A DNA stretch of 36,133 nt, taken from the NCBI GenBank assembly GCA_038244255.1, contig JBBRTP010000001.1, positions 1-36,133 on the forward strand. Reading direction: 5' to 3'. Under the pieces are notes generated by a model. The model was not told the DNA's origin. It saw only the letters and a program-made list of their open reading frames with translations, and did not search any database. Positions 736 through 31,880 of the stretch are shown here, piece after piece; position 1 is the stretch's first letter; each line of letters starts with the position of its first letter. The position numbers and the translations under genes were made by a program. The DNA comes from Candidatus Saccharimonadia bacterium (GTDB lineage: Bacteria; Patescibacteriota; Saccharimonadia; UBA4664).

Positions 736-1185
736 TTATGTGGAGCTGGGGGACTCGGGGGCCTGAGAAGCTTCGGTCTTTAAGTGATCGGGGACGCCGG
801 TGATTAATTCACCAGTCGCCGGTGCGCCGACGATCGGTGATCCCGCGTCCTGGGCGCTTCGAACTACCGAGTCAACTAAGGCGTCGGCCATCGCTGCTTG
901 AGCCGGCGCAGCATCTAACTTCGCCCGCAATTCAGGGGTCATCGGCACGGGGACGCGGTCGGTCGAAGGCCCGACGACTGGCGCCGCGGCTTCCTGACCT
1001 GGCATGCTATCGATGATCGGCGGCGCTGCTGGCGGAGCGTCTTCGGCGCGGACAACACCGGGAACACTGTCTATCAAACCGGGCGACGCTGGCTGCGGCG
1101 CTGGCGATTCTAGGACGCCGGAGGCATCTACCGCGGCCTTGATCGCGGCCTGGTCGGGGGCGGGACCTTGTGAATCTGGACTCAT
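736..1185 (-). CDS. hypothetical Pro/Ala-rich low-complexity protein
   Basis: Listed in the ORF track. It has an internal ID-S-[VM]-PG repeat and no recognisable domain. Confidence 0.45.
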   Translation of the reverse strand: MSPDSQGPAPDQAAIKAAVDASGVLESPAPQPASPGLIDSVPGVVRAEDAPPAAPPIIDSMPGQEAAAPVVGPSTDRVPVPMTPELRAKLDAAPAQAAMADALVDSVVRSAQDAGSPIVGAPATGELITGVPDHLKTEASQAPESPSST

Positions 1186-1291
1186 TTTTGAACCTTTTTG
1201 TTTTTAGCTGATATTACGGCTCAGTATAGCACAAAAGCATAAGAATTACAAGACCATTTTTTAGCCCCGGAAATACTCCTGGGGCTCTCGC

Positions 1292-1780: not shown

Positions 1781-1885
1781 AGCTCTAGTTTACAACAAAA
1801 GAGGAACGTCCCCACCGAGCTAGCTATCCCTTAGCATCGAAAAACTGAAACAAAACCAGGGTTGAGGGGTATAAGTAGTACAAGC

Positions 1886-2419: not shown

Positions 2420-3201
2420 ATAACCTTATTAAAACCAGTGCCACCAATCTCACCCCGCGGGATGATGCGGCGACCAGAGTAATGCGAGATATCCAAAAGC
2501 GGCGCTGGGGGAGGCTTGTACCGACATCTCGCTTCGCCCTGCCTATGCTGGCCTTTCTCATGAGCGGCCTCGCACTCGCAGGAACCGCTAGCTACGCCTA
2601 TTATCAGTCGAACCTCAGGCCAGCGCTCAGCCGAGCTCAGCTCGAACAGAGAGTAGCTCGGCAAATCGCAGCAGCCAGGGCAAATAATGTTGGCCTTAAC
2701 ATCAACGAAGGCGAGATACCGAGAGAACCTGCTGGCATCAGCCTCCCTAGCTGCGAGACAACTACGGCCGAGCTGTGTATGTATAACTTTGGGGTCACGA
2801 ACGGCGGCGAGGCGATCGTAGTCTCGGAAGGCTACTTTGCTGATGAAGCCAAGATGCGCCGCCTGGCAGAGACACTATTTGCCCAGACCAAACAGCTTAA
2901 TTTTGCTTCTCGTACGCCAATCTACTCAAAAAAAATCGACGCGCTAAACCTCCCTCTGCTCGTCCAGATAAGTCAGGATCATCGTCAGCCGACCGCGACC
3001 GAACAGGCACAGCTCGACCTCTCCACCCCAGACAGACCATTTGGCCAATGGAACTGCGGTAGCGAGAGCGGCTGTGACCTCGAGTATAATTACTGGCCCG
3101 GAGCCACAGTCGCGGATTGGAGTAACTGGGAGCTAGCAAGCCAGCACGTTCACACTCTCATACTCAGTAAACCCACGTCCGATACGCCTTACATAAAGTA
3201 A
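2407..3201 (+). CDS. putative membrane-anchored anti-sigma factor
   Basis: It overlaps the sigma stop codon by 13 nt and has a GGAGGA SD. It has a single TM segment (FALPMLAFLMSGLALAGTASYAYY). The functional call rests on gene context only. Confidence 0.5.
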   Translation: MDRLDNLIKTSATNLTPRDDAATRVMRDIQKRRWGRLVPTSRFALPMLAFLMSGLALAGTASYAYYQSNLRPALSRAQLEQRVARQIAAARANNVGLNINEGEIPREPAGISLPSCETTTAELCMYNFGVTNGGEAIVVSEGYFADEAKMRRLAETLFAQTKQLNFASRTPIYSKKIDALNLPLLVQISQDHRQPTATEQAQLDLSTPDRPFGQWNCGSESGCDLEYNYWPGATVADWSNWELASQHVHTLILSKPTSDTPYIK

Positions 3202-3226: not shown

Positions 3227-3266
3227 CCAATAATAAGACCCCACCGGCGTGGGGTCTTATTATTGG
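3227..3266. terminator. bidirectional hairpin abutting the CCA end of tRNA-Val
   Basis: CCAATAATAAGACCCCA-ccggcg-TGGGGTCTTATTATTGG. Confidence 0.6.
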
Positions 3267-3340
3267 TGGACAATACAGGACTCGAACCTGTGACCTCTGC
3301 AATGTGAATGCAGCGCTCTAACCAACTGAGCTAATTGTCC
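3264..3340 (-). tRNA. tRNA-Val (anticodon CAC), CCA encoded
   Basis: Minus strand: GGACAATTAGCTCAGTTGGTTAGAGCGCTGCATTCACATTGCAGAGGTCACAGGTTCGAGTCCTGTATTGTCCACCA. Anticodon loop is TTCACAT. Confidence 0.9.
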
Positions 3341-3453
3341 CTAACCAACCCCGACGCTTCGGTCGGGGCTCCGACTGGAACGTCGGAGCTGAGCTAATTG
3401 TCCGTAACGGACAAATCTTAGCAGGAAAGTGCTGCTTCATCTAGCCTAGAGGC

Positions 3454-3681
3454 TCACTCGAACGGTGGATCTAGTTCAAGGCTGAGCATGGAGAGTAATG
3501 ACTCCGCCAGATCGGGCCCGAGGCGCACCTCACGGCTGAGGCGACGCGGCCCCGAGAGGAACTTGAGGGTAATGTTATCCTCGGCGTCGCGGTCGAGCAT
3601 TACGATATCGACCCCGCGCCGTACCGGCACTGGCCTCGCTAGCGTCTGCATGAATGTTATCTGGCGGCCACTTCTCGCCAT
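3454..3681 (-). CDS. hypothetical small protein
   Basis: Listed in the ORF track. A GGGGG SD-like motif lies upstream of the ATG. No recognisable domain. Confidence 0.35.
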   Translation of the reverse strand: MARSGRQITFMQTLARPVPVRRGVDIVMLDRDAEDNITLKFLSGPRRLSREVRLGPDLAESLLSMLSLELDPPFE

Positions 3682-3898
3682 ATCTACCCCCGAGCTTGTG
3701 CTCTTTATTGGTGGTAATCGTAACCTTTATGTACGATTCGTGTCATTTGCCATTCCTACAGGACGTTATTTTGAGGCCAAATATTTGGATGTTGTTACAA
3801 TGACAACACGGATAATGCACTCCCAGAGCCATAAACACCTTAAGCGGTATCGGGCGTCAACTAATGGTTAGGTCGCCATCCTCACACTCCCGCCCGTC

Positions 3899-3937
3899 AC
3901 AAGATAAAAACCCCACAGCGTGGGGTTTTTATCTTGG
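3899..3937. terminator. bidirectional hairpin abutting the CCA end of the second tRNA-Val
   Basis: CCAAGATAAAAACCCCA-cagcg-TGGGGTTTTTATCTTGG, the same design as 3227-3266. Confidence 0.6.
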
Positions 3938-4011
3938 TGGATCCTAGAGGATTCGAACCTCTGACCCCTTCAACGTCAATGAAGTGCTCTAGCCAGCTGA
4001 GCTAAGGATCC
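3935..4011 (-). tRNA. tRNA-Val (anticodon GAC), CCA encoded
   Basis: Minus strand: GGATCCTTAGCTCAGCTGGCTAGAGCACTTCATTGACGTTGAAGGGGTCAGAGGTTCGAATCCTCTAGGATCCACCA. Anticodon loop is TTGACGT. Confidence 0.9.
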
Positions 4012-4202
4012 GCGAACTAATTGTTACTCGGACAAGGTCAAACTATAGCGCAAAAACCTCTGGTGGGCAATGACTACGATCTTAGGTAAAAAGGTTTGAC
4101 TAGATTGGCCATACCACCTGGGTTAAGGTGGTCTTACAGAAATCCTTCTGTCGGCGCCATTCCACTGCGAAAGTGTGGAAGTACCGGGAAGGATGTAGTC
4201 AC

Positions 4203-4808
4203 ATGACTACTACTCCACAAACTGCACCGTTCGACCGGATCGACGAGCTCACCGCTCACCTCGGTACGGTCCAGACCACGCTACTCGGTATCTTCGCCGA
4301 GAGCAACCAGCGTCACCAGGCTATCGATGCTGAGTACGCACCCGAGGTCAACCCGCTGCTCAAGGACGCCCAGGACACCTTCAACGAGCTCCAGCGGCTG
4401 TGCGAGGCACGCCGGACCGACCTGCTGCCCACCAAGGGTGCCAAGCCGGCCAAGAACGCCAAGCGCAACACTGGTACGGTGGGCTGGCGAGCGGCGGTCC
4501 GCGTCGTCACCCATGTCCCGGACGAGGAGTTAGTTGCTCGCCTCCGGTCTATGTCTCCGGCGATCTCGCGGCGGTTCGTCCGTCGGACGGTCCGCTACGA
4601 GCTCAACCGCGACGCTCTGACCTACCTGGCCAACCGCGATCGGGTGGTCGAGCTCGAGGGCATCGAGCTCGATACCAGCGATGACTTCTACGTCATCCCG
4701 AGCGCCGGTATGCGAATGAGCACGGCCAAGCCCTACTGGCCGCGGCTCGAGGGCCTCTCCGGTCCGCTCATGCTCAACGCCGTCCTGAACCAGGACACCG
4801 ACGCGTAA
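4203..4808 (+). CDS. phage Mu Gam-like (host-nuclease inhibitor / DNA-end binding) protein
   Basis: An N-terminal coiled coil is followed by GTVGWR...RFVRRT...ELNRDAL...DDFYVIP. From memory, these parallel the Mu Gam motifs GDVSWR...RFIRTK...EINKEAI...EDFSIIP. ATG at 4203. The gene is GC3-rich. Confidence 0.6.
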   Translation: MTTTPQTAPFDRIDELTAHLGTVQTTLLGIFAESNQRHQAIDAEYAPEVNPLLKDAQDTFNELQRLCEARRTDLLPTKGAKPAKNAKRNTGTVGWRAAVRVVTHVPDEELVARLRSMSPAISRRFVRRTVRYELNRDALTYLANRDRVVELEGIELDTSDDFYVIPSAGMRMSTAKPYWPRLEGLSGPLMLNAVLNQDTDA

Positions 4809-4822
4809 CACCGCGTCACCCG

Positions 4823-4848
4823 CCCCTCCGCCATGCCAGGCGGAGGGG
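4823..4848 (+). terminator. terminator of the Gam-like gene
   Basis: CCCCTCCGCC-atgcca-GGCGGAGGGG followed by TCTCTATTTG. Confidence 0.6.
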
Positions 4849-4946
4849 TCTCTATTTGTATCCCCTTATGCTTGCAGAGCACCCGTGTACCGCATACGCT
4901 GTGAGTAAGTTTTTGTGGAAAGTCCCAGCGTAAGAGGAATGTTTCT

Positions 4947-6080
4947 ATGCTGAGTCAGCAAATCGCCGATAAGATCCGTGCTAAGGTCAGCACCCTGGTT
5001 AGCCAGGAGCTTCGTGTGACCGGTGCGGCCGGCGAGACGCTCTCGGCCACCAGTGGCTTAAAGCCAGAGAACATCGACCTCACTAAAGTGCCATGGGCCA
5101 TCCCCTTCTCGTATGGCGGCAACGTGGTGGGTTACATCGTCCTCGCCGCCGAGATGAGTAATCACGATGAAATCGCCCCACTCATCCGCAGCATCGCCGA
5201 GCTCGTAATGCACCAGAGTATCGTGCTCGAGCAGATCCCGCGTCAAGACGAACGGCTGGATAAATTCATCTACGATCTACTCAATCAACCGCAGCCCGAC
5301 TGGTCGCTCCTTACGGCCGAGGCTCGCCTCTTTGATATCGACCTCGAACGCCCTCGTATCGCCATTGTGATCCAGCTGGACGATCCCATGCTCACCGCTC
5401 GCTCTCAGGATCCGTCCAACGATCGTGAAGTTCGCCTCACCCGTTATAAATTTGGCATTAATCGCGCGCTTAACTCGTTCTACACCTCAAGTCGCGAGAA
5501 TGTAGTGAGTTACCTCGGTGGCACCTCATTCTCGATCCTAAAAGACCTAGTCACCGATACCGAGAGCGACCTGGCAGCCAGCCTCGAGGGCTTCAAGAAG
5601 AGTCTTAATGCCATCTACTCTATCCTCAGAAGCGAGCTCAAACTCCCAACCACGGTGGGCGTTGGCAATTATCACCCTGGGTTGGAAGGTCTGCGTCAGA
5701 GCTACCACGAGGCCATTTCAGCTATCGAGCTGGGCGCTCAGACCTGGGACGTTGATCGTATCTATCACATCGATGACTTCGGCGTGGTGGCACCACTCCT
5801 TTCGGGCGTGGACGAAAGTAATATTTACTTCTCCCGTGAGCTCCTGGACCGCCTCGGCGAAAATGCCGAGATTATCCAGACTCTAGAGGCCTTCTTCAAC
5901 TTCGATATGAGTCTCACGCGTACTGCCGAAACGCTTAAAATTCACCGTAACACCTTGGTTTACCGGCTAGATCGCATCACCGACACCCTCGGGCTCGACC
6001 CGCGGGTATTTGACGATGCGGTGCAGATAAAACTGGCTATTTTATATAACCGGTTTGTGGGGCCAGCTCATGCGGCTTAA
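4947..6080 (+). CDS. CdaR/PucR-family transcriptional regulator
   Basis: C-terminal PucR-type HTH (LTRTAETLKIHRNTLVYRLDRITDTLGLDPRVFDD). The N-terminus looks like a diacid-regulator domain. Confidence 0.85.
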   Translation: MLSQQIADKIRAKVSTLVSQELRVTGAAGETLSATSGLKPENIDLTKVPWAIPFSYGGNVVGYIVLAAEMSNHDEIAPLIRSIAELVMHQSIVLEQIPRQDERLDKFIYDLLNQPQPDWSLLTAEARLFDIDLERPRIAIVIQLDDPMLTARSQDPSNDREVRLTRYKFGINRALNSFYTSSRENVVSYLGGTSFSILKDLVTDTESDLAASLEGFKKSLNAIYSILRSELKLPTTVGVGNYHPGLEGLRQSYHEAISAIELGAQTWDVDRIYHIDDFGVVAPLLSGVDESNIYFSRELLDRLGENAEIIQTLEAFFNFDMSLTRTAETLKIHRNTLVYRLDRITDTLGLDPRVFDDAVQIKLAILYNRFVGPAHAA

Positions 6081-7254
6081 CCATACCCTAGCTCAACAGA
6101 TCGTTGATAAGGCGCATACTATTTTAAAGCGTGACATCTTACTAGCCGATCTCGCTGGTCAGCTCATCGCTTCAAATACCCCTAAGCACCGCGCTTTTGT
6201 ACCCGAGGCGCTCAGCGTGGCTCAGACCGGACGCACCGTCACCAGTGGCTTCGAGGGCCGCGAGACGCGCTGGTGGCCATTCCTCTACGATGACGTGATC
6301 ATCGCCGTCTTCGGGTTGCCGCTGGAGGCGGGCACCCTCACCCAAGAGGCCACCATATTGCTCCACGGACTGGCCGAGGTCATCGTGTACCAGCACTTCC
6401 TGCTCGATAAGATCCAGAGCGCCGAGCGTGTCCGGGCCGATTTCATCAACGACGCACTCACCGCGCCCAGCATCGATGTGGACGCCATCTATAGCCAAGC
6501 CGATATACTGCAGCTCAACTTGCGTTCGGCTCAGTGCGTCATCTTGATTCACCTAGCCGGCCTCGAAGAAGCCGCCCGCACCGAGTTCGCTCACCTATCA
6601 TCCGAGGAGGAGCTCATTCAGCTCGATCAGATCACCGAGCGCATCAGTAACCACATTCGCGAAGGCTTCAAGAACTTCCAAGACAACTTGGTGGCATACA
6701 TTGGCGACGATCGCTTCGTCTTACTAAAAGGTATTGGTGGCGAGAGTCTCACTACCTTAAATACCATCCGATTCATGACCGAAAAGAGTGAATATGCTCT
6801 CGAACTGTTGCAAAAATTACAACGTAAAGAGACCATTACCATCGGCATCGGCCAATATTACCCCGACCTACCCGGCCTCAGAAAGAGCTATCAGGACGCC
6901 AAATTGGCCTTAGAGGTCGGTAGTAAGGTCTGGGGGCTTAGCCGCATCTACCACATCAAGCACGTTGGTATGTTCATAACCCTAGCCAATACCTCCCAGG
7001 ACCGTAAGGCCGAGCTCGCCCACCAGATTCTCTCGCCGCTCCTGCGCGATGAGCAGCTCTTCAAGACCGTGCAGGCCTTCCTGGCATCCGGGCTCAACCT
7101 CACCGACGCTGCAGAGAAGCTCCATATTCATCGCAACACGCTGATCTATCGGCTCGATAAAACCAAGAAATTGATTGGTCTAGATCCACGCCATTTTGAT
7201 GATGCATTGCAAATAAAACTTGGGCTGATGTTCTACCAGGAGTCTCCAGTGTAA
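6070..7254 (+). CDS. CdaR/PucR-family transcriptional regulator (tandem paralog)
   Basis: C-terminal HTH (LTDAAEKLHIHRNTLIYRLDKTKKLIGLDPRHFDD). The ATG at 6070 overlaps the end of the upstream gene by 11 nt. Confidence 0.85.
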   Translation: MRLNHTLAQQIVDKAHTILKRDILLADLAGQLIASNTPKHRAFVPEALSVAQTGRTVTSGFEGRETRWWPFLYDDVIIAVFGLPLEAGTLTQEATILLHGLAEVIVYQHFLLDKIQSAERVRADFINDALTAPSIDVDAIYSQADILQLNLRSAQCVILIHLAGLEEAARTEFAHLSSEEELIQLDQITERISNHIREGFKNFQDNLVAYIGDDRFVLLKGIGGESLTTLNTIRFMTEKSEYALELLQKLQRKETITIGIGQYYPDLPGLRKSYQDAKLALEVGSKVWGLSRIYHIKHVGMFITLANTSQDRKAELAHQILSPLLRDEQLFKTVQAFLASGLNLTDAAEKLHIHRNTLIYRLDKTKKLIGLDPRHFDDALQIKLGLMFYQESPV

Positions 7255-11378: not shown

Positions 11379-12311
11379 TTATAGCCAAATCTTAGTCTTT
11401 ATGTCCTGCCTCAAACGATAACTATTAGCGTGCATGCAAAGCCCAAGGTACGACGAAATGTTAGCCTCATTTACCCGCTGTATCATCCGTAGCTTGGTCC
11501 TATTCCTGAGGCCAATGCTATGCGGTTTTACCACGTAGCCCAAGAAATCAATTCCCTGTCCCCAGCTGCGAATCGTCGTCTTACCCGGATGCAGAGTTAG
11601 CCCTAGCCGGTCATACAGAAACTCGGTCAGGACAGGGATTAGATCAAACAGGTGCTGCCGGCTAGTACTCAGGATTATAAAGTCGTCACAGTAGCGCAGA
11701 TACTGTTTCTCTCTAAGATGGTTCTTCACAAACCAATCAAACTCATGTAGGTAGACGTTAGCAAAGAGCTGGCTCGTCAGGTTACCCAGCGGGATCCCCT
11801 TGCCGGAGCTTGCGGGCAGGCTATCGATAATTGTTTGCAATAACTCTAAAGTTCTCTCGTCACCGATCCGCCGCTCAAGTAGATCCATCAGTATCGCATG
11901 ATCGACCGACGCAAAGAACTGTCTAACATCACATTTGAGGGCGTAGACCGTCTGCGTATTGTTTGTACTAGCTTGGCGCAGGAAGGTACGTAGTCGCGTC
12001 ACCGCCGCATGAGTACCTTTTTGCTTGCGACAAGAGTAACTGTCATGGATGAAACGACGATCAAACAATGGCTCGATGGCGCTGACAATCGCCTGGTGGA
12101 CGAGGCGATCCTCGACGGTGGCTTTATGAATTCGGCGCTGCTTGGGATCGCAGATCGTAAACGGACTATACCTACCATGTCGGTAGCTACCAGACTCAAG
12201 CTTTTGCTGTAATTCAAAGATGTTCACCTCGAGATGGCGTTCGTATCGCAGAACATCGGTACGTGAACGCTTACCCCGTTTAAACTTGTCCCAAGCGGCA
12301 AATAGCGCCAC
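11379..12311 (-). CDS. DGR-type reverse transcriptase
   Basis: RT motifs are present, including motif 4 IPLGNLTSQ (the DGR hallmark [ILV]GxxxSQ) and YCDD. There is no maturase/endonuclease tail. GTG start. TR, VR and Avd lie adjacent. Confidence 0.9.
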   Translation of the reverse strand: MALFAAWDKFKRGKRSRTDVLRYERHLEVNIFELQQKLESGSYRHGRYSPFTICDPKQRRIHKATVEDRLVHQAIVSAIEPLFDRRFIHDSYSCRKQKGTHAAVTRLRTFLRQASTNNTQTVYALKCDVRQFFASVDHAILMDLLERRIGDERTLELLQTIIDSLPASSGKGIPLGNLTSQLFANVYLHEFDWFVKNHLREKQYLRYCDDFIILSTSRQHLFDLIPVLTEFLYDRLGLTLHPGKTTIRSWGQGIDFLGYVVKPHSIGLRNRTKLRMIQRVNEANISSYLGLCMHANSYRLRQDIKTKIWL

Positions 12312-12312
12312 T

Positions 12313-12753
12313 ATGGAGACTGCTTCATTAAAACTTACCGAGGAATCTTTATGCCTAACAGGAACAAAATCTCGCCCCCCCCCTAAACTGAAGGGTAAGC
12401 TGTCCGGTGGGCTGTTTGATGTACCGATTATTCATACGCTCTACCAAACGTATCATTCCTGGAACGATTTATTGCTAAAGTTTCCTAAGGCTCAACGCTA
12501 CACACTAGGGCAGACTTGCCAAACGCAGCTGCTCACCCTCCTTGAAGCTACCGTGAGCGCAGCCGGGATAGCTGAAACCGAGTCTAAGGTAAAACAGCTG
12601 CGTCTTGCCTCGGCCAAGCTGGACGTATTACGTCTCCTGGTACGGCTCTGTAAGGACTGCAAATGCATCTCTAACGAAGCTTATCTGGAGACCGAATCCA
12701 AACTACACGAGATCGGACGCATGCTCGGTGGTTGGATCAAAGCTACCTCATAG
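12313..12753 (+). CDS. avd: Avd-like four-helix-bundle DGR accessory protein
   Basis: FPKAQRYTLGQTCQTQLLTLLEATVSAA...LRLASAKLDVLRLLVRLCKDCKCISNEAYLETESKLHEIGRMLGGWIK fits the family. The start is uncertain: ATG 12313, or ATG 12220 which would overlap the RT. Confidence 0.75.
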   Translation: METASLKLTEESLCLTGTKSRPPPKLKGKLSGGLFDVPIIHTLYQTYHSWNDLLLKFPKAQRYTLGQTCQTQLLTLLEATVSAAGIAETESKVKQLRLASAKLDVLRLLVRLCKDCKCISNEAYLETESKLHEIGRMLGGWIKATS

Positions 12754-12757
12754 AAAT

Positions 12758-12788
12758 AGTAAAGGAGCGCGATTAGCACTCCTTTACT
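12758..12788. other. 10-bp hairpin 11 nt from the 3' end of the TR
   Basis: AGTAAAGGAG-cgcgattagca-CTCCTTTACT. It could be the avd terminator, part of the DGR RNA spacer structure, or both. Confidence 0.5.
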
Positions 12789-12799
12789 ATATCGAGCAG

Positions 12800-12916
12800 T
12801 CCCTGAAGGCAACCATGGCAGTCTTGTGCCACCTGTTGTCATCCCAGTTGTTGTCGACATAGGCCTTGCGGCCATTGCGGTTGAAGTTCGGCAGGTTCCC
12901 GGAGTCGACGACCAAC
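12800..12916 (-). repeat. DGR template repeat (TR)
   Basis: Ungapped 117-bp match to 13287-13403. All 17 mismatches are A on the minus strand here. There are seven AAC/AAT codons when read in the VR frame. Confidence 0.9.
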
Positions 12917-13143
12917 TAGTTATGCACTCTTAGCCTTGCGTATCACTGAGCCCAGACGCATCCAGACTCTGTATTTTATGCGAGATCAACCATCTCAAGC
13001 CAAGAGCACGGAGTGCTTGATAAGCCACCTGCGCACTCTAGCAACCCGTAAGCGACTAGATCCTGGCAGTAATGTGGCAATCAAGAGATTTCGGCGACCA
13101 TAACTCCGTAAAGTCGGATTCATTAGCCTACTTTCCAGTTTTG

Positions 13144-13152
13144 ATTATACCA
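13144..13152 (-). promoter_or_regulatory. candidate extended -10 (TGgTATAAT) that could drive the TR transcript
   Basis: The minus strand reads TGGTATAAT. No clear -35 element. Confidence 0.3.
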
Positions 13153-13279
13153 AGACATGAAGAAGGGGCGCTCCTCCAACCTCTACTTTCGTAAAAATTG
13201 AATTTGCGCCCCTGCGGGGCGGAGGGCCAAGGAACAGAGTCCAAGGCCCTCCAAGCCCCAAGGGACCTAAGTCCGAGCC

Positions 13280-14080
13280 CTACAACTCCCTGAAGGCAAC
13301 CATGGCAGTCCCGTGCCACCTGCGGCCATCCCAGTAGCCGCCGACAAAGGCCTTGCGGCCATCGCGGAGGAAGCGCGGCAGGCTCCCGGAGCCGACGACC
13401 AACCCTGAGGCCAACATGAACGGGATGATAGTGCCATCCATTTTCACGTAGACCTGCGGGTTCAGCGCCAGTAGCCAAGCTACTTCGAGCCCAGGCCAGA
13501 ATCGCTGGAGCCGTCGCACCTCGGAAGGAACCACACCATCGGTGGGGTCCCAGTAGGTCTCAAGATCGAGGCCAACCGGTCCGAGACACTTCGTGTCCTC
13601 TTGCTCACTTTGCTCACTGCCGACATAGAAGCTCGTGCGACCGGGACCAGTATAGTCCTCGAAGGCAAAACCGCAAGCTTTGGCTTCATCCTCGAGCCAA
13701 GCTATGGCCTCGGCTCGGTCATGCTCCAGGCCCTTACCGAGCCGGATGGTGACACCGGTGGGCCGGAGTCTCCCAGCGTGATCCGTGAGATTAGCCGCCA
13801 AGGCAGCGGACTGCTTCTTAGTGAAGCCCCAGCCACGTAGCCTACTGCGAGCCATGATGCGCTCGACGTACTGGCTGACCGGCGTCCATGGGATGTCGGG
13901 AGCCGCTGGCGTAAGCAGTGTCGCGAAGGCACCGCGGTCGACCTGCGAGAGGTCGGCGTCGAGCATCCTCTGGATGAGATCACCGTTACCGAGCAGGTTC
14001 TGTACTTGCTCGACGGTCGGCTCGTCCCCGAAGAGGCTCAAGAGCTTCCGGGTCTGCTTCATCGTAGCGGGTGTCGGCAT
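13280..14080 (-). CDS. DGR target (variable) protein with a VR-encoded C-terminus
   Basis: ORF track lists 13280-14116 with a GTG start. The ATG at 14080 behind AGGCGG is preferred. The C-terminus is ...GGYWDGRRWHGTAMVAFREL, like the C-terminal variable regions of known DGR targets (comparison from memory). GC3-rich. Confidence 0.8.
   Translation of the reverse strand: MPTPATMKQTRKLLSLFGDEPTVEQVQNLLGNGDLIQRMLDADLSQVDRGAFATLLTPAAPDIPWTPVSQYVERIMARSRLRGWGFTKKQSAALAANLTDHAGRLRPTGVTIRLGKGLEHDRAEAIAWLEDEAKACGFAFEDYTGPGRTSFYVGSEQSEQEDTKCLGPVGLDLETYWDPTDGVVPSEVRRLQRFWPGLEVAWLLALNPQVYVKMDGTIIPFMLASGLVVGSGSLPRFLRDGRKAFVGGYWDGRRWHGTAMVAFREL
13287..13403 (-). repeat. DGR variable repeat (VR)
   Basis: It forms the last 39 codons of the target ORF and differs from the TR only at TR adenines. 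Confidence 0.9.
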
Positions 14081-14265
14081 GACAGTCCGCCTATTCTGCC
14101 GTCTAATTCTAGTCACGCACGGTGCGCGGTAGACTCAGACCAAGGTGTGAGAACGGCATACTGAGACCAAAAAGGAATTGGTCACAAAATACCGCTCTCA
14201 ACTGAAATGTAACGGATTGTCAAAATACAAATGTATTATACTACTAAACACTTATTCTGTCAATA

Positions 14266-14676
14266 TTATGTATTAGGCACTAACCTGGCGCTCGGTGCCT
14301 GATTGGCTAGCTTCGCATCAAACGTCCAGAGCGGCTCGGCATGGTTAAGCTCGGCGTAAGTGGCTAGGCAGCAGTCTTCGAAGGAGAGCTTGGGGTTACT
14401 GGAGTACAGCGGTAGCGCCCACTCAAAGAGTCCACGGTTACAGTTAATCTCAGCCAGTGCCATAACGCCGGTGACGGCCTCGGCCACTTGAGCACGAGTG
14501 AACTCATAATTGCGCTCTAGCACAAAGACCACCTCAATAATCGCCGTGTCGGCGATGGCAAATTGGCCCTGCGCAGCCTCGAACAGTCGAGCCACTGCCC
14601 GGTGCTGATCGGCAACGTCGTTCAGGAGTAATCGCAGAAGCACATTAGCATCGAGTGAACCAGCGAACGCTGCCAT
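14266..14676 (-). CDS. vapC: PIN-domain toxin
   Basis: The acidic tetrad context is present (LDANVLL, IIEVVFV, FEDCCLA, WTFD). It abuts the antitoxin gene. Confidence 0.85.
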   Translation of the reverse strand: MAAFAGSLDANVLLRLLLNDVADQHRAVARLFEAAQGQFAIADTAIIEVVFVLERNYEFTRAQVAEAVTGVMALAEINCNRGLFEWALPLYSSNPKLSFEDCCLATYAELNHAEPLWTFDAKLANQAPSARLVPNT

Positions 14677-14936
14677 TACTGCCCTACCCCACGATGAGCC
14701 TGATAATACTCGTCGACACTCACTACTGGGCGAGTACGGGGCTTAACGTAGCGCGAGATCCGCTCACTGAGCTCAGCTATATTCACGAGCTTCGAGATCA
14801 CCAGCTCGCCCTTACGCTCGTCAAAGCTTATCAGTAGTACGCCGCCGGTCTTGTCCAAGCCAAGCTTACGACGCACCGGTGCCGGCAGGGTCGTCTGACC
14901 CTTAGTAGTAATTGTAATCGTATTCTTCATGCTCAT
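14676..14936 (-). CDS. vapB: AbrB/SpoVT-fold antitoxin
   Basis: ITITTKGQTTLPAPVRRKLGL motif. Its stop overlaps the vapC start. Confidence 0.75.
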   Translation of the reverse strand: MSMKNTITITTKGQTTLPAPVRRKLGLDKTGGVLLISFDERKGELVISKLVNIAELSERISRYVKPRTRPVVSVDEYYQAHRGVGQ

Positions 14937-15022
14937 TACTATACACAATTGTATTACTTATTGCAAAATGTAATGGATTAGCATCTTGGGCAAAGAAAGA
15001 GCCACCCTATTACGAGGGTGGC

Positions 15023-26159: not shown

Positions 26160-27980
26160 TCAGTCACGAAAGATCGCTATGCGTTGCTCCAGGGTGAGCT
26201 TGCGGAACCCCGGGAAGCACGACAGCTCGGCTACGAGATCCAGGACTTGACGTCCTCGTTCGATCTCTTCCTGATCTAGCTCCTCGCCCTCGCGACCTAG
26301 CGTGAGGACGAAGAGCGGAGCAGGAGCAGCATCGGCTACCAGCTCGTCGGTGGCTACCCCAACGGCAGCCTCGACGGGATGGTGACCATTGCCGTTGTGG
26401 CCGTTGGTAGCGACCGACTCGGGCACGAAGGCTTCGGTCGGTTCACCGAGGACAGCATCCGCCTCGACGGCGTTGATGACATCGATGAGCTCCGGATCGG
26501 TCGCCGACGCCAAGGCTAGAGGCACCTCTGTGGGCTCAACCGTTGCCGTTACGAGCGGGCCGAAGCGATTGCGACAGATCTCCTCGCCGATCTCGGTGAG
26601 AGCAATCGACAGGCAGCGCTTGCCGTTGATGCGACGATCGATGAGATTCTTGTCGGTCAAGCCGGTCAGCACCCCTGCCAGAGCGGTCATCTGATTAGAA
26701 CGGTCAAGACGCTCGGCAAGTCGCCGCGTCGCCTTGCCATCGCTATCTTCGACCGAACCGTCGCGGTACAGCGACTCCAGAGCCTTCCAGCCGGGTGCCA
26801 ACAACTTATAACCGGACTTGTTCGGCTTATGCGTCTGAACCGGCTCCACACTTGGCACCGATACACGAGCTGCGGGCGATGGTTGCGGCCGGGGCGGCGA
26901 AGCTGGCTCAGGTCTCGGTACCGGATGAGCGCGGAAGTTGTCCTCTCGTACCTGAAGCCACAGTCTGAATTCGGGGATGGCCTGGAGCACCTCATACCAC
27001 TGGTACAGGTAGCTTTGCTCGACCGAGTTCGGCACCTTCTCGCCGAAGAACACACGAAATAGTCGGCACTCGTGAGGCATGAACTCCTCATCGCTCAACC
27101 GGGCCTCAAGCTGACTCCAGGCATACCTCTTGTCGAGGGAAGTTGTTCCCATCAGGCGGGTATTCATTGAAGACTCCATCCCTATCTCGTCCGAGTTTAG
27201 CTTGGACAACGCCTTTGTGAGTTTAGCCCTCACCTCTTGAAATATCTGACAGGCGCGACTTTCGGTGACTCCCAGATCTTCGCCGATCAGCCTTAGCGTG
27301 CGCTCTCGCAGTACATGCTCTACGAAGACGTATCGGGAACGCGGAGCCAGTTTGCTGATGGCACTACGCAGCTCAGCAATGGTTTCTTTGTGCTCAAAAT
27401 GCTCTTCCGCCGAGATTGAGTCATCCTTAAGCATATCGATGAGCGAGAGCGTAGAATCTGATTCACCCGTAGATTCCCTCATCTCATCGATCGAATGTTG
27501 ATAACCCGACGCTCTGATCCTCAGCAATTGAGTGCGGTAGGTCGCTTCACTCACGCCCATTACCTCGGCAGTCTGCACCGCGGAGGGATCAATTACTGCA
27601 GCAGCAGCCAGTTGATCCAAAGCAGCGTCGATCCGACGGAACCAGGACGTACGGAAACGGTCCATCGAGCTATCAGCTCTGAGTTCGTCGATTATGGCAC
27701 CACGGACCCTCAGGAAGGCATAGGTCTTGAAGTCTGTTCCTCTTGACGGATCGAACCGTTCGATCGCGTCCATCAGGCCAATAACGCCGTACGAGACCAT
27801 GTCATCAAGAGTGACATAGTTGGTGACATATCCCTGGTAACACTGCTTGGCGCACGCTACCGCGATCCCCCGATATCTCAGGAGGAGGAAGTTGCGGTCG
27901 TCTAACCGACCGTACCGCCAATACCTTCTCCAGGTCATCTCAACTTCATCGTGCAGCTCGGCCAAAGGCTCAGCGGTCAT
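26160..27980 (-). CDS. group-3 (FliA/WhiG-like) sigma factor fused to an approximately 335-aa C-terminal extension
   Basis: Region 2 (VSYGVIGLMDAIERFDPSRGTDFKTYAFLRVRGAIIDELR) and region 4 (RTLRLIGEDLGVTESRACQIFQEVRAKL) lie within the first about 275 aa. The extension contains a winged-helix-like stretch. GAGGAGG SD precedes the ATG at 27980. Confidence 0.8.
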   Translation of the reverse strand: MTAEPLAELHDEVEMTWRRYWRYGRLDDRNFLLLRYRGIAVACAKQCYQGYVTNYVTLDDMVSYGVIGLMDAIERFDPSRGTDFKTYAFLRVRGAIIDELRADSSMDRFRTSWFRRIDAALDQLAAAAVIDPSAVQTAEVMGVSEATYRTQLLRIRASGYQHSIDEMRESTGESDSTLSLIDMLKDDSISAEEHFEHKETIAELRSAISKLAPRSRYVFVEHVLRERTLRLIGEDLGVTESRACQIFQEVRAKLTKALSKLNSDEIGMESSMNTRLMGTTSLDKRYAWSQLEARLSDEEFMPHECRLFRVFFGEKVPNSVEQSYLYQWYEVLQAIPEFRLWLQVREDNFRAHPVPRPEPASPPRPQPSPAARVSVPSVEPVQTHKPNKSGYKLLAPGWKALESLYRDGSVEDSDGKATRRLAERLDRSNQMTALAGVLTGLTDKNLIDRRINGKRCLSIALTEIGEEICRNRFGPLVTATVEPTEVPLALASATDPELIDVINAVEADAVLGEPTEAFVPESVATNGHNGNGHHPVEAAVGVATDELVADAAPAPLFVLTLGREGEELDQEEIERGRQVLDLVAELSCFPGFRKLTLEQRIAIFRD

Positions 27981-28273
27981 CTCACACCTCCTCAAACACG
28001 TTGTCGAAGAACTCCGTCTTGGATGGGAGGATGATAGCCCTTAAGCCTAACCCCGTCAACGCTCGCGCCGCGGCCCGGAGGCTTGTCACTTCCCTCCTGG
28101 TCTGGTACGATATGTCGGTTATTTGACCTCAGACATCGACCATATAAGGGTCATTTGCACGAGTTCGATGCCAGGAAGCGCCGAGTACCAAGCGAGCCGT
28201 ATATAAACATACGGTGAGTGCGGAACGCAGGCGATGACGCCGCAACGAGACGTGAAAATGAGCCGACCCACGA

Positions 28274-28349
28274 GGGCTCGTAGTGAAGTGGTTATCACGC
28301 CTCCCTGTCACGGAGGAGATCGCCGGTTCGAAACCGGTCGAGCCCGCCA
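28274..28349 (+). tRNA. tRNA-Asp (anticodon GTC), CCA encoded
   Basis: GGGCTCGTAGTGAAGTGGTTATCACGCCTCCCTGTCACGGAGGAGATCGCCGGTTCGAAACCGGTCGAGCCCGCCA. Confidence 0.92.
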
Positions 28350-28356
28350 TTGAAAG

Positions 28357-28380
28357 ACCGTCACGCAAGTGGCGGTTTTT
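28357..28380 (+). terminator. tRNA-Asp terminator
   Basis: ACCGTCAC-gcaa-GTGGCGGT followed by TTTTT. Confidence 0.7.
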
Positions 28381-28404
28381 CATGTTGTGAATCAGTAGGC
28401 TCAT

Positions 28405-28480
28405 TTGTATTTATACCATTTTTGTGTTATAGTAAATTATCGCTCACCGAGCGTTCGACCTGCGTCACGCACGACGTCGC
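28405..28480 (+). promoter_or_regulatory. promoter (TTGTAT-17-TGtTATAGT) plus conserved structured leader, copy 1
   Basis: The 61-nt block 28420-28480 matches 34546-34606 at 54/61 positions. It contains hairpin CGCTC-acc-GAGCG, palindromes TGCGTCACGCA and CGACGTCG. Confidence 0.6.
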
Positions 28481-28505
28481 ACTACTCCATCGAGAGGAGC
28501 CCAAC

Positions 28506-28958
28506 ATGGGTTCGAGTCGCACCAACATGCCAACGGTGGCTGGCGGCGCCACAAGCGGCGAGGCCAGTAACACCGAGATCGCGCCCAACCGACGCAGTCT
28601 CCATCTCGTCTCCGAGGGCTGGGAGAACTTCTCGGCAGCTCTGATGTACTACTTCAGGGACGATGCCACTCCTGTGCACTGGATCATCGAACCAGAGCTT
28701 GGCTTCTGCCTCAGCCACGACACGATCCTCGATCCCACGTATAGTGAGGGTGGCGTTGCCGGCTCGCTTCACGATGCGACCGATTGTGCCTACGACTGGC
28801 TGGTCAGCCTCAATCACGCCGAGAGGTACCGCCTCGTGAAATGCTGGCCGAACGATGGGTCCAACCTCACCGAGCTCACCGGCTTCCAGATGAACACGCG
28901 CTACCAGCGCCTCCGGACCGATCAGGACATCCTCGAGATCAAGCCCGCCTGGGTCTGA
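28506..28958 (+). CDS. hypothetical protein, paralog of 34644-35030
   Basis: GAGAGGAG SD. Shared motifs are SAAL..YFRD, ERYRL/ARYQL, PND.S..T.L.GF and a terminal PAWV. GC3-rich. Confidence 0.65.
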   Translation: MGSSRTNMPTVAGGATSGEASNTEIAPNRRSLHLVSEGWENFSAALMYYFRDDATPVHWIIEPELGFCLSHDTILDPTYSEGGVAGSLHDATDCAYDWLVSLNHAERYRLVKCWPNDGSNLTELTGFQMNTRYQRLRTDQDILEIKPAWV

Positions 28959-29212
28959 CCCCGCCCCCTCGGGGCATCCACCCGTCACTCCGACGAAGAT
29001 GCCCAGGAGGGGGCATTTTCTTGTCTTTGGAGCTGGAAATAAGTCCGAACATCATCCGATACGGCCCGCCATAAAAGACGTCTTGCCTTGCGCAGGGCGT
29101 CTTTTATGATGATTTGTCGGCCGGTTGAGAACGTCGCTGGTTCGGCGAAGCCAAGACGCCGCAGGCGGACCTTGGCGGAGAAGGCGCAGCCGCTAACCGG
29201 TCGAGCCCGCCA
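28959..29212 (+). repeat. cassette boundary module, copy A (about 254 bp)
   Basis: It starts immediately after the stop codon. It is homologous to 29785-30037 and ends with an 18-nt copy of the tRNA-Asp 3' end. Confidence 0.85.
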
Positions 29213-29269
29213 GCAATCGTTTAGAGGCTTTATTTAGTTTCTTTTTGTTAGCAAACACACAATCGTCGA

Positions 29270-29298
29270 TGTCGAATTATTGACCAATCTATCATTTT
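29270..29298 (+). promoter_or_regulatory. promoter TTGACC-17-TATTAT
   Basis: Read directly from the sequence, upstream of the 29401 gene. Confidence 0.5.
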
Positions 29299-29400
29299 AT
29301 GGTATTATTTACCAAATCCCTCCCCGTTATGGGTAGGTCCGCCATCTGGCGTAGGAGGTTTCAGCAGCTCCTCTGCTGACGCACCGAGAGGTAGGTCGTT

Positions 29401-29775
29401 ATGACCGCCAAGATCATCGTGGCTGGTCCCTCTAAGTGGGACATCATGATTTCCATCTTTGAGGGTACAAAGGTCAGATTCACTGCCGATGACGGCTCCG
29501 TGGTCAGATCTCGCATCCAAGCAATCTTCGACAACATGGGCTGGTATCTCGGCGACAAGCCAATCCTCAAGAGTCAGGCCTATCTCTTTGCAGGTGAGTT
29601 CGAAGAGGATGAGAAGTCGATAAAATTCTTCGCCTACTACTCGCCTAGTGAGCGAAGCGGCTTCATCAGCACCAACGTCCTTGATGATGGCAGCTTCTTC
29701 GACGCCGGCCGTGACGGTTACACAGAACTCCACGAGGTCTGGGTCAAGCACATCCTTGGCTCAACCACCACCTAG
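29401..29775 (+). CDS. hypothetical protein (cassette 2)
   Basis: Listed in the ORF track. GAGAGG SD. No recognisable domain. Confidence 0.6.
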   Translation: MTAKIIVAGPSKWDIMISIFEGTKVRFTADDGSVVRSRIQAIFDNMGWYLGDKPILKSQAYLFAGEFEEDEKSIKFFAYYSPSERSGFISTNVLDDGSFFDAGRDGYTELHEVWVKHILGSTTT

Positions 29776-29784
29776 ACCAGACTA

Positions 29785-30037
29785 CCCCGCCCCCTCGGGG
29801 CATCCAACCGTCACTACGACGAAGATGCCCAGGAGGGGGCATTTTCGTGCCCGGTTGTACTGAAATAAGTCCGAACATCCTCCGCTACGGCCCGCCATAA
29901 CAAAAGACTCACCCCGAGTGGGTCTTTTATTATGTAGACTTAGCTCCGGTTTCGAACGTCGCAGGTTCGGCGAAGCCAAGACGCCGGAGGCGGACCTTGG
30001 CGAAGAAGGCGGAGCCGCTAACCGGTCGAGCCCGCCA
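29785..30037 (+). repeat. cassette boundary module, copy B (about 253 bp)
   Basis: Homologous to 28959-29212. Confidence 0.85.
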
Positions 30038-30068
30038 TTGAAAGACCGTCACGCATGTGGCGGTTTTT
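30020..30068 (+). repeat. direct repeat of the tRNA-Asp 3' end plus its terminator
   Basis: 49 nt identical to 28332-28380 except one loop base. Weaker similarity continues to about 30095 versus about 28405. Confidence 0.85.
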
Positions 30069-30144
30069 CTTATGCTTTGAAATAATCAGTAGCTGACAGA
30101 TAATAATGCTTCGTAACTTCACATTCTGGACCAAGGAGCGAATC

Positions 30145-31257
30145 ATGGTTGACCAGCCTATGACGTACTCAGGCAGCGGCGTCAGCTATGACGCCATGGA
30201 CCCATTCAAGCGTGCTTGCCAGCTCGTTGGCCTTGAGACAGCCGAGAACATCCGGCGGCTCGCCGGTGGTGAGCTCAGGGAGCTGGAGGCAAGTCGAGGT
30301 GAAAGTGTCTACCTCATCGAAACGCCTGATAGCTACCTTGCCCACGTCGAAGAGGGACTAGGCACCAAGAACCTCGTCGCCGACGCCATGTACGCTCTTA
30401 CCGGCAAGTCCTACTACGACCAAGTCGCCCAGGACGCGGTGGCCATGATCGTCAACGACATGATCACGCTAGGCGCCCTACCGCTCTCGGTTGCCATGCA
30501 CCTAGCAGCCGGCTCATCTGACTGGTTCAACGACGAGACCCGCTGGACAGACCTCATCGAGGGCTGGAAGGCTGCCTGCAACCAGGCAGGGTGTATCTAC
30601 AGCGCCGGCGAGTCGCCCACACTCAGGGACCTTGTCATGCCGGGCACGGTTGTCATATCGGGCTCGGCTATGGGCATCATCAAGCCCAAGGCACGGCTGA
30701 TTAAGAGCAATATCCAGAATGGCGACGCCATCGTCATTTTGGCTAGCTCCGGCTCTCACGCCAATGGCCTGACCCTAGCGCGAGACATCGCTGAGCGCAC
30801 GGGTTACGATGCCAAGCTAAGCGACGGCCGGATGTTCGGCGAAGCCCTGCTCGACCCGACGACCATCTATGTCCCCGTCGTGGAGGGTTGCCTGGACGCC
30901 GGGATCGACATCCACTACACGGTTAACATCACGGGCCACGGTTGGCGCAAGCTGATGCGGGCGGTGGAGCCGTTCGTTTACTGGATCCAGTACGTCCCCG
31001 AACCCCAGCCAGTCTTCAAATTCATCATGGAGCACGGACCGGTGGACGAAGAGGAGATGTATGGCAACTACAACATGGGTGCCGGCTTCGCTCTCTATGT
31101 CGACAACTCTGATGTCGATCGAGTTATCCAGATAGCTGCCCAAAGCGGCATCGAAGCCTGGTACGCGGGGTACATCGGGAAGGTCGGTAACAAGAAACGA
31201 GTGATGATCCTGCCAAAGCATCTGGTTTACGAAAGCGAAACGCTTGCCGTTCGCTGA
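30145..31257 (+). CDS. PurM-family (AIR synthase-related) protein
   Basis: EGLGTK, MIVNDMITLGALPL, SAGESPT..MPG and SSGSHANGLTL motifs parallel PurM. AAGGAG SD precedes the ATG at 30145. Confidence 0.75.
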   Translation: MVDQPMTYSGSGVSYDAMDPFKRACQLVGLETAENIRRLAGGELRELEASRGESVYLIETPDSYLAHVEEGLGTKNLVADAMYALTGKSYYDQVAQDAVAMIVNDMITLGALPLSVAMHLAAGSSDWFNDETRWTDLIEGWKAACNQAGCIYSAGESPTLRDLVMPGTVVISGSAMGIIKPKARLIKSNIQNGDAIVILASSGSHANGLTLARDIAERTGYDAKLSDGRMFGEALLDPTTIYVPVVEGCLDAGIDIHYTVNITGHGWRKLMRAVEPFVYWIQYVPEPQPVFKFIMEHGPVDEEEMYGNYNMGAGFALYVDNSDVDRVIQIAAQSGIEAWYAGYIGKVGNKKRVMILPKHLVYESETLAVR

Positions 31258-31356
31258 TTCACCTAGCAGTAGGTGGGTGCTCAGCTCCGGAGGTAACTCT
31301 GGAGCTGAGACTCAACCCAAGCTTTTAACAATTGTTGAAGGCTTAGGCTGAAATAT

Positions 31357-31392
31357 GAAATAAGTCCGAACGTCCTCCGCTACGGCCCGCCA
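31357..31392 (+). repeat. third copy of the GAAATAAGTCCGAAC...TACGGCCCGCCA motif
   Basis: It matches 29036-29071 and 29862-29897. The following about 40 nt resemble 29213-29250. Confidence 0.75.
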
Positions 31393-31502
31393 GTAATCAT
31401 TTGGAGTCTTTCTTAAGCCTCTTTTTGTATTCCAAGATTGACTTCTGACCGAGTTTATCATATCGTGCTCCTGTTCGCTCCCGAGACCGAAATGAGGCCA
31501 CC

Positions 31503-31760
31503 TTGCCCAGTTCCAATCCAGTTGCCCAAGCTTCGGCGCCGAAAGGCCAGCACGCAGATCCGAACCATCACTGCCCCTACCGTGAGGCACTAGAAGAACT
31601 CGACCGGATGCGGCCCAATGATTTCAAAACGGGTCAAGGCCACCTTTCGCCCGCATTCCGCGAGGTGAACGTCTCGGCAGTCATGATGCACGTCTGTCGC
31701 ATCGTGAACCGCATACTGCATAACACTGACGAGAACGGCCAGCCCCTTCAGCAGGCGTAG
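31503..31760 (+). CDS. hypothetical protein (TTG start)
   Basis: GAGG lies 6 nt upstream of the start, and a TTGACT-17-TATCGT promoter-like site lies at about 31437-31465. An antisense ORF competes with it. Confidence 0.35.
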   Translation: MPSSNPVAQASAPKGQHADPNHHCPYREALEELDRMRPNDFKTGQGHLSPAFREVNVSAVMMHVCRIVNRILHNTDENGQPLQQA

Positions 31761-31880
31761 ACCCCACCAGCGAAAATTGAGCCGCACTACGGACGCATGA
31801 GCGTCGCCGGTAGGCGGCTCTCATGTATTCAAATATTCAAACCATGAATTATATCCTAACCTCATCCGCGACTAGATAAG

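Follow-up and report, generated by a model that had tools for sequence, protein, structure and literature searches.

A tRNA-Asp-anchored array of small gene cassettes in a Saccharibacteria contig, and candidate recombination at the tRNA 3' end

Xer-dependent modules (the pdif modules of Acinetobacter plasmids and the integrative mobile elements exploiting Xer, or IMEX) are small recombinase-less units that lie between short conserved sites, the recombinase being provided in trans. Miniature elements derived from IS200/IS605, and the repetitive extragenic palindromes (REP) and bacterial interspersed mosaic elements (BIME) associated with REP-associated tyrosine transposases (RAYT), lack terminal inverted repeats, have a hairpin or hairpins close to an end, insert next to a short specific sequence and include gene-less copies. 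Clusters of attC sites lacking an integrase (CALINs) are treated in the IntegronFinder paper (PMC4889954), and the tycheposons of Prochlorococcus are tRNA-anchored tandem genomic islands with partial-tRNA repeats (bioRxiv 10.1101/2020.12.28.424599). We describe here an array of small cassettes that follows a tRNA-Asp gene in a contig of 36,133 nt, analyzed in its entirety and called the window below. The contig stems from a metagenome-assembled genome of Saccharibacteria, in the candidate phyla radiation (CPR), and the nearest named relatives of the PurM protein that it encodes are Saccharibacteria/Saccharimonadia. In its working the array comes closest to an integron cassette array without integrase (CALIN) and to the tandem islands of tycheposons, and it is a member of neither; we rate it as a variation on a known kind, the site-specific gene-cassette array or tRNA-anchored island. 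With a modest preference over the other explanations taken together, we read it as an array of insulated cassettes that would be inserted and excised, at a core formed by the 3' end of the tRNA gene, by a recombinase encoded elsewhere.

The surroundings of the array are chromosomal: genes for ribosomal protein L25, NrdR and guanylate kinase lie on the contig, alongside five tRNAs, sigma factors and further housekeeping genes. The last 8 nt of the tRNA-Asp gene, including the encoded CCA, read GCCCGCCA, and thus consist of the acceptor 3' strand, the discriminator and CCA. A preliminary description of this DNA had reported this 8-mer six times in the array; we recovered the same six copies, all on the plus strand (28342, 29064, 29205, 29890, 30030 and 31385). 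Six copies within 3,051 nt correspond to a Poisson P of 4.7e-8 (expectation for the whole window 2.19, obtained from shuffles). A seventh copy of the window, at 15961, is unrelated to the array.

Every copy in the array is the core of a junction with a constant order: a left arm (a or b), the 8-nt core, and a right-arm hairpin (i, ii or iii), which together make a composite site of about 80 nt. Left arm a is the genuine end of tRNA-Asp, AACCGGTCGA. Left arm b, GAAATAAGTCCGAAC(A/G)TC(A/C)TCCG(A/C)TACG, is conserved, unstructured and about 28-36 nt long, and shows a T-loop-like GTCCGAA (general form GTYCGAA) 22 nt before its 3' end; although no piece of the resident tRNA, it is the left arm met most often. 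The hairpins of the right arm begin within about a dozen nt after CCA, and all three types are predicted to fold as A-tract/stem/T-tract structures, that is, as bidirectional intrinsic terminators. Only the right arm forms a hairpin, and DNA folds do not pair the b arm with it. Writing left and right arm in that order, the junctions of the window succeed one another as a-i, b-iii, a-ii, b-iii, a-i and b-ii, and the flank types and the six combinations proposed earlier were found exactly so on re-examination. All junctions share the orientation of the tRNA, irrespective of the strand of the gene that they enclose. The array is composed as follows.

28274-28349, plus strand: tRNA-Asp(GTC), anchor of the array (ARAGORN; Rfam tRNA, 66.7 bits)
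28342-28349, plus strand: core of junction W1 (a-i), within the tRNA gene
28350-29071, plus strand: cassette A, 722 nt core to core (hairpin i, promoter, gene A, D3, b arm, core)
28350-28381, plus strand: type i hairpin of cassette A
about 28404-28433, plus strand: promoter-like region of cassette A
28506-28958, plus strand: orphan gene A, 150 aa
28958-29023, plus strand: D3 terminator hairpin of cassette A
29036-29063, plus strand: b arm of cassette A
29064-29071, plus strand: core of junction W2 (b-iii)
29072-29212, plus strand: gene-less unit 1, 141 nt (iii hairpin 29072-29108; D2 29121-29204, ending in the 18-nt tRNA 3' end)
29205-29212, plus strand: core of junction W3 (a-ii)
29213-29897, plus strand: cassette B, 685 nt (ii hairpin 29213-29248; second D3 copy 29784-29849; b arm 29862-29889)
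29280-29308, plus strand: promoter of cassette B, TTGACC-17-TATTAT
29401-29775, plus strand: gene B, 124 aa
29890-29897, plus strand: core of junction W4 (b-iii)
29898-30037, plus strand: gene-less unit 2, 140 nt (type iii hairpin, second D2 copy)
30030-30037, plus strand: core of junction W5 (a-i)
30038-31392, plus strand: purM cassette, 1355 nt, its counterpart in contig L003 (see below) being 1354 nt (i hairpin 30038-30069; b arm 31357-31384)
30077-30104, plus strand: promoter of the purM cassette, TTGAAA-16-GATAAT
30145-31257, plus strand: purM
31385-31392, plus strand: core of junction W6 (b-ii)
31393-31880, plus strand: distal cassette D (ii hairpin 31393-31428; decayed, core-less b arm 31846-31872)
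31438-31466, plus strand: promoter of cassette D, TTGACT-17-TATCGT
31503-31760, plus strand: orphan gene D, TTG start, 85 aa
31881-33602, minus strand: thioredoxin-like gene, whose stop codon marks the end of the array

The array had been thought to hold four single-gene units and six sites. All four open reading frames (ORFs) exist and are called as proteins in the public record; to them are added two gene-less units, of 141 and 140 nt, bounded by a core on both sides. Similarly, six cores are intact, and a decayed b site without core (31846-31872), which outscores all 916 background windows, brings the total to seven. This seventh site closes the fourth gene unit, at the point where the minus-strand thioredoxin-like gene has its stop codon (31881). 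With a promoter and a terminator of its own, each unit is predicted to be expressed independently, and the terminating hairpins combined with internal promoters would make each unit an insulated expression module in either orientation. The cargo is mostly orphan: genes A, B and D remain singletons when clustered at 90% identity, and Pfam, PHROG, NCBIfam and PADLOC give no match for any of them. For gene B, a search of 1.8 billion representatives retrieved seven remote relatives, some of them repeats within giant proteins; its AlphaFold2 model (pLDDT 38.6) is too poor to use.

Several repeat families run through these units. The 3' end of the tRNA together with terminator hairpin i forms a direct repeat (28332-28381 and 30020-30069), previously given as 49 nt and near-perfect, and measured by a repeat finder as 50 nt with 98% identity; the last 18 nt of the tRNA are found again at 29195-29212 and 30020-30037. 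The same tool finds the b arm three times in the window (starts 29036, 29862 and 31357). The D2 block (92 nt, starts 29121 and 29946, 93% identity) ends each time in the 18-nt tRNA end, the D3 hairpin (66 nt) is present at 28958 and 29784 (95% identity), and the two copies of right flank ii are 82% identical. None of the arms, nor D2 or D3, has a copy elsewhere in the 36-kb contig. Although genes A and B are not related, both have a common right-end module of 255 nt behind them, 93-95% identical; together with the reassortment of the arms, this excludes a simple tandem duplication. The same stretch may alternatively be divided into two elements, 28350-29212 (863 nt) and 29213-30037 (825 nt), in which case each element may hold a b site internally and finish, attR-like, on a P-arm-like D2 plus the tRNA identity block; the overall picture is unchanged.

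The possibility that b and D2 are structured RNAs was rejected: their folds are no better than those of shuffled sequence (z-scores -0.3 to +1.2), and a search of Rfam over the array at E <= 5 returned the tRNA only, with no family for either. Nor is D2 a tRNA pseudogene, its similarity to the tRNA region upstream of the final 18 nt being at the level of shuffled sequence.

The contig as a whole has no close relative, and relatives of the array were therefore sought through homologs of purM. The closest PurM homolog (79% identical) is borne by L003, a Logan contig of 6,158 nt that starts within the T arm of a tRNA-Asp ending ...CCGGTCGAGCCCGCCA, followed by a type iii hairpin. Hairpin i had been taken for the native tRNA terminator; it does follow the tRNA of the window, but its native status is unproven given the type iii hairpin behind the tRNA of L003. 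L003 contains five b junctions, all on the plus strand and co-oriented with the tRNA.

about 1180-1211, plus strand: b junction K2, with a damaged core
1837-1872, plus strand: b junction with core GCCCACCA and right arm ii
2808-2842, plus strand: b junction K4, with core GCCCGCCA and right arm i, directly upstream of purM
4161-4196, plus strand: b junction with core GCCCGCCA and right arm ii
4836-4870, plus strand: b junction with core GCCCGTCA and right arm i

At K2 (1204-1290) the core is cut to GCCCG and is followed by about 50 nt of unrelated sequence and then by GCAATCATTT, the start of a type ii arm; this looks like a small insertion or a damaged site.

Between these junctions the genes have turned over. 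The units of L003 carry an HNH/WYL protein, a 153-aa ORF, a 228-aa protein, purM, a PRK-type kinase and a 137-aa protein, and purM alone is in common with the window. Four non-purM cassette genes are called in L003, all on the strand opposite to the tRNA. The two right-arm partnerships missing from the window, a-iii and b-i, are present in L003, so that the two arrays together display all six combinations of left (a, b) and right (i, ii, iii) arms. The homology between the two contigs begins exactly at a core: it runs from 30030, the first base of that core, to 31426, the end of hairpin ii, with D2-a in the window facing b in L003 on its left side, and unrelated sequence (46% identity) beyond ii on its right side. 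The gene-less units also have insert-free counterparts, L003 showing at K4 a plain b-i where the window has b-iii, D2 and a-i, and the window itself showing b-ii at W6 against the arrangement at W2-W3. The 141/140-nt unit thus represents an insertion, with the 8-nt core directly repeated on either side of it. An invariant locus in related genomes had been named beforehand as the observation that would speak against recombination; what we found in L003 is the same junctions behind tRNA-Asp around different genes.

The junctions themselves are conserved far better than the gene that they enclose. Between window and L003, core plus hairpin i is 97.5% identical, and b arm plus core at the purM junction 92% identical (the b arm of another junction matches at 33 of 33 nt), whereas purM is 77.7% identical in nucleotides overall and 58.5% at third codon positions. 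The junctions are thus under purifying selection and are not neutral scars. This bears directly on a first alternative, that the array is a decayed remnant island, left by successive integrase-bearing elements that entered the tRNA-Asp 3' end and then lost their integrases and most of their genes, cargo and attachment scars staying behind. The 50-nt repeat does look like attL and attR on the two sides of a 1,688-bp insert, tycheposons are documented to accrete in tandem with repeats of part of the tRNA, some cores of L003 are mutated (GCCCACCA, GCCCGTCA, GCCCGATA) and the last site of the window has none. Scars should decay neutrally, however, which the above identities contradict; moreover, we see no integrase fragments and no junk DNA but compact units with intact promoters and terminators, and the commonest left arm, b, is not a piece of the resident tRNA. 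We therefore regard a remnant island as unlikely.

Purifying selection is silent, by itself, on function, and a second alternative takes the junctions for a lineage-specific intergenic element, conserved as an insulator or terminator, that duplication and homologous recombination would have spread and whose tRNA-like end would reflect descent from a tRNA fragment. That every right arm folds as a bidirectional terminator after CCA agrees with such a module, as do the T-loop-like GTYCGAA of the b arm and the ii-like hairpins that lie, in another contig (L001, below), behind tRNA-Asn and other genes. The b arm is nevertheless unstructured and gives neither a promoter nor an RNA-family signal; the orientation of the junctions follows the tRNA and not the flanking genes; the arms reassort at an 8-nt core, too short for an exchange of the RecA type; within the 36 kb the elements are confined to the tRNA-adjacent array; and, between contigs, the core varies with the anchoring tRNA. 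An insulator module spread in this way appears to us improbable, to about the same degree as a remnant island.

Three further contigs extend the comparison. L001 and L002 are independent assemblies, identical over 21 kb (PurM 78%), in which a tRNA-Asn ending ...CCGGAGCCA (...GGAGCCA) is followed by an ii-like hairpin. Downstream of it come a copper-resistance operon of 4.5 kb and a junction consisting of ACGGTTCGAAGAGTGCGTGGTAGGGGGAGCCA and an ii-like hairpin, then purM and a second junction, AAGTTCGAAAATCGTCCCACAGCCCGAGCCA with a iii-like hairpin; another decayed site lies near 12920-12982. Behind purM, the junction aligns collinearly with the b site of the window, and a hand count on the alignment gives about 60-70% identity between the two. 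L145 (PurM 71%) has two intergenic sites ending ...GAGCCA, each with a hairpin behind. The core thus differs with the anchor, being GCCCGCCA at tRNA-Asp and GAGCCA or GGAGCCA at tRNA-Asn. Such a match between core and anchoring tRNA is what a strand-exchange core must show, and L001 and L145 are, judging from position and architecture, probable members of the family.

These contigs also bear on the least likely explanation, that the array is a chance clustering or a mis-assembly of metagenomic reads that strings alternative alleles together. The window does come from a metagenome-assembled genome, and L003 and L145 break at or beside junctions. The clustering statistic given above stands against chance; the repeat copies differ every 15-30 nt, so that long k-mers would not collapse them; and three other samples yielded this architecture in independent assemblies of their own, L001 and L002 being identical although assembled separately. 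We give this explanation hardly any credit.

In the recombination reading, strand exchange would take place inside the core, catalyzed by a recombinase whose gene lies elsewhere in the genome. Tyrosine integrases of one kind target the extreme 3' end of tRNA genes, and an enzyme of that kind would be the most likely candidate. A circular unit of the form b-core-x would insert at the tRNA end or at any existing junction, and the segment between any two direct cores could be excised; as a result, left and right arms would be reshuffled exactly at the core. Strand exchange in the core would explain why the sites point the same way as the tRNA on whichever strand the genes lie, why arms reassort exactly at an 8-nt core too short for homologous recombination, why the core-bounded 141-nt unit is present or absent, why content has turned over completely around conserved junctions, and why the core matches the anchoring tRNA. 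Site-specific recombination at a tRNA-derived core, as suggested in the preliminary description, thus gains support from the turnover in L003, the completed set of arm combinations, the breakpoints at the core and the conservation of the junctions; we infer from these the recombination itself, and with it the circular intermediates and any present-day activity.

A number of observations weigh against this reading. A circle of 141 nt is very small as a recombination substrate. The hairpin upstream of purM is of type i in the window and in L003 and ii-like in L001, so that right arms are not permanently linked to their cassettes, contrary to a pure crossover at the core. All four genomes were reached through purM, and although purM is the sole gene shared by the four arrays compared, its constancy is a matter of ascertainment in a sample of four only. 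A hidden Markov model built from the b arms of window and L003 misses the sites of L001 and L145, whose membership rests on position and architecture. As for the enzyme, Pfam scans of about 53 ORFs covering the contig, with Phage_integrase and Y1 among the families, revealed no integrase, recombinase, resolvase or transposase, bearing out the earlier remark that no integrase is recognizable in the window; none was found in L003 or in 21 kb of L001 either. The confinement of the motif to the array is a statement about the 36-kb contig, and b-type elements might exist elsewhere in the genome. Finally, strict scans of genome, metagenome and viral collections returned no further copy of the junction. 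In genome contigs, the pattern GTCCGAACN6CCGN4GGCCCGCCA, too strict for the diverged sites of L001 and L145, gave 19 single matches in high-GC non-CPR genomes and none in Saccharibacteria, which we read as chance. AACCGGTCGAGCCCGCCA gave 120 single matches in metagenomes, none of them a tRNA or in a tRNA context; viral scans gave one chance match within an ORF and none for the b motif; and phage and plasmid collections, queried with the array by blastn, gave matches to the tRNA only.

The size of the gene-less units also invites a different enzymology. A single-strand transposase (HUH/Y1, of the IS200/IS605 or REP/RAYT type), or another transposase, might insert units 3' of GCCCGCCA, and arrays would then grow without target duplication. 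The units indeed lack terminal inverted repeats, have a subterminal hairpin at their left end and finish on the target sequence; those of 141 nt resemble non-autonomous miniature elements, small units being better suited to transposition than to a circle. Such insertion is formally hard to separate, from sequence alone, from recombination at the core. Yet the window encodes no Y1 or other transposase, the left hairpins belong to three unrelated families, and the right end (b), unlike in IS200/IS605, has no matching hairpin. We consider transposition quite unlikely, somewhat more so than a remnant island or an insulator module.

If recombination at the core is retained, how far does the array follow systems already described? 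Like tycheposons, it is anchored at a tRNA 3' end in a streamlined genome, with direct repeats of the tRNA 3' part (attachment repeats of about 40 nt there, the 50-nt repeat here, at 98%), older units pushed distally and accessory cargo. Unlike them, its units are small, 0.14-1.4 kb, and hold one gene at most (a unit of L001 reaches 4.5 kb), and none carries integrase, replication or packaging genes in the window, in L003 or in the portion of L001 examined. Most of its junctions use the non-tRNA b arm, which shares only the 8-nt core with the tRNA, and they are strongly conserved instead of being decaying scars.

With integrons and CALINs the array shares mostly single-gene cassettes between co-oriented sites of about 80 nt, each with a short core and a variable hairpin part, arms that reassort at the core, and, as in a CALIN, no integrase beside the array. 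In contrast with integrons, there is no IntI and no attI/Pc platform. By inspection of the sequence and by DNA folds, the junctions have no GTTRRRY/RYYYAAC cores, and their unstructured left arm means that the site is not an imperfect palindrome of the attC type (R''/L''-L'/R'). Integron cassettes mostly lack promoters, share one orientation and depend on Pc for expression; here, promoter-like sites precede genes B, purM and D, and cassettes occur in both orientations, the four L003 genes being opposite. The anchor is a tRNA gene and the host a CPR bacterium.

The small units without a recombinase of their own, between short conserved sites, recall Xer-dependent modules. The sites of the array are nevertheless direct, not alternating inverted, and they are chromosomal and tRNA-linked; inspection by eye showed nothing like a 28-nt dif site (11 + 6 + 11 nt, with XerC and XerD arms of the ATAA/TTAT type around the 6-nt spacer). 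The absence of terminal inverted repeats, the hairpins near an end and the gene-less copies are shared with IS200/IS605 miniature elements and with REP/BIME-RAYT, from which the array departs by the lack of a Y1 transposase in the contig, by one-ended hairpins of three families, and by clustering at one tRNA instead of dispersal.

The gene through which the family was reached deserves a comment. The PurM-like gene, noted earlier as a unit of the array, is a genuine purM in a core-bounded unit; it is, on the other hand, widely conserved and not exotic cargo. It matches the TIGR00878 purM model (1.4e-52; 178.9 bits, below the curated cutoff of 236), and its homologs in other CPR genomes lie inside purL-purN-purM operons. 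The same ortholog is found in purL-purN-purM or purL-purM clusters in L149 (5301-11104) and L152 (2484-7477), whereas the array has purM on its own, the contig carrying no further gene for purine synthesis. In L146 (9817-10001), L147 and L148 (PurM 70%), purM lies 108 nt downstream of tRNA-Val, and no b-like junctions were seen at these or the other more distant purM loci (L004, L146-148, L149-152).

Downstream of the gene, the 3' untranslated region holds a conserved three-hairpin region (window 31258-31350), also present after purM in L001/L002. Its counterparts are at L003 4063-4150, L001 11111-11200, L145 1272-1365 and L149 11105-11195. Across these five genomes, one of which has purM in a pur operon, compensatory changes preserve the pairing in 11 of 32 predicted pairs. 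It may represent a structured RNA not yet described, or else an element that acts in processing or stability.

Elsewhere on the contig, functions of a mobile type are limited to a diversity-generating retroelement, a Mu Gam-like protein and a PIN/MazE toxin-antitoxin pair. The retroelement (11379-14116) comprises a reverse transcriptase (11379-12311, minus strand), a bAvd-like ORF (12220-12753, plus strand), a template repeat (12800-12916) and a variable repeat (13287-13403) at the 3' end of the ORF 13280-14116 (minus strand); all mismatches between the repeats are at adenines of the template copy. The Mu Gam-like gene (4128-4808) adjoins two tRNA-Val genes (CAC and GAC) in a region extending over 3264-4808 and is followed by two tandem PucR-type regulators (4947-7254). 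The PIN-domain toxin (14266-14676) and the MazE/PrlF-like antitoxin (14676-14948) are both on the minus strand. Divergently transcribed from tRNA-Asp is a sigma-70 family protein (26160-27995, minus strand) with regions 2 and 4 in its first 260 residues and a C-terminal extension of about 350 residues; it has no homolog above 34% identity among 5.8 billion proteins, and so led to no syntenic relatives.

CPR bacteria (Patescibacteria) have very small genomes, and to our knowledge few of their mobile elements have been characterized. A search of the literature found no description of such an array in Saccharibacteria, which is weak evidence of absence. We tentatively propose, as a possibility less probable than recombination at the core as such, that Saccharibacteria hold an undescribed integron-like system of gene capture, in which the tRNA 3' end would serve as the primary site, a composite site of about 80 nt as the cassette site, and a recombinase would act in trans on self-expressed, insulated cassettes, the core having been retargeted between tRNA-Asp and tRNA-Asn from one lineage to another. 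In such a system, the recombinase may be a housekeeping enzyme. Across the arrays, the cargo consists of orphans, a copper-resistance operon, an HNH/WYL protein and a stand-alone purM. If the proposal is true, an integron-like organization of cassettes would have been built on the attachment logic of tRNA genes, and a tRNA-anchored array that swaps single self-contained genes would give CPR bacteria a simple route for turning over their gene content, gene by gene.

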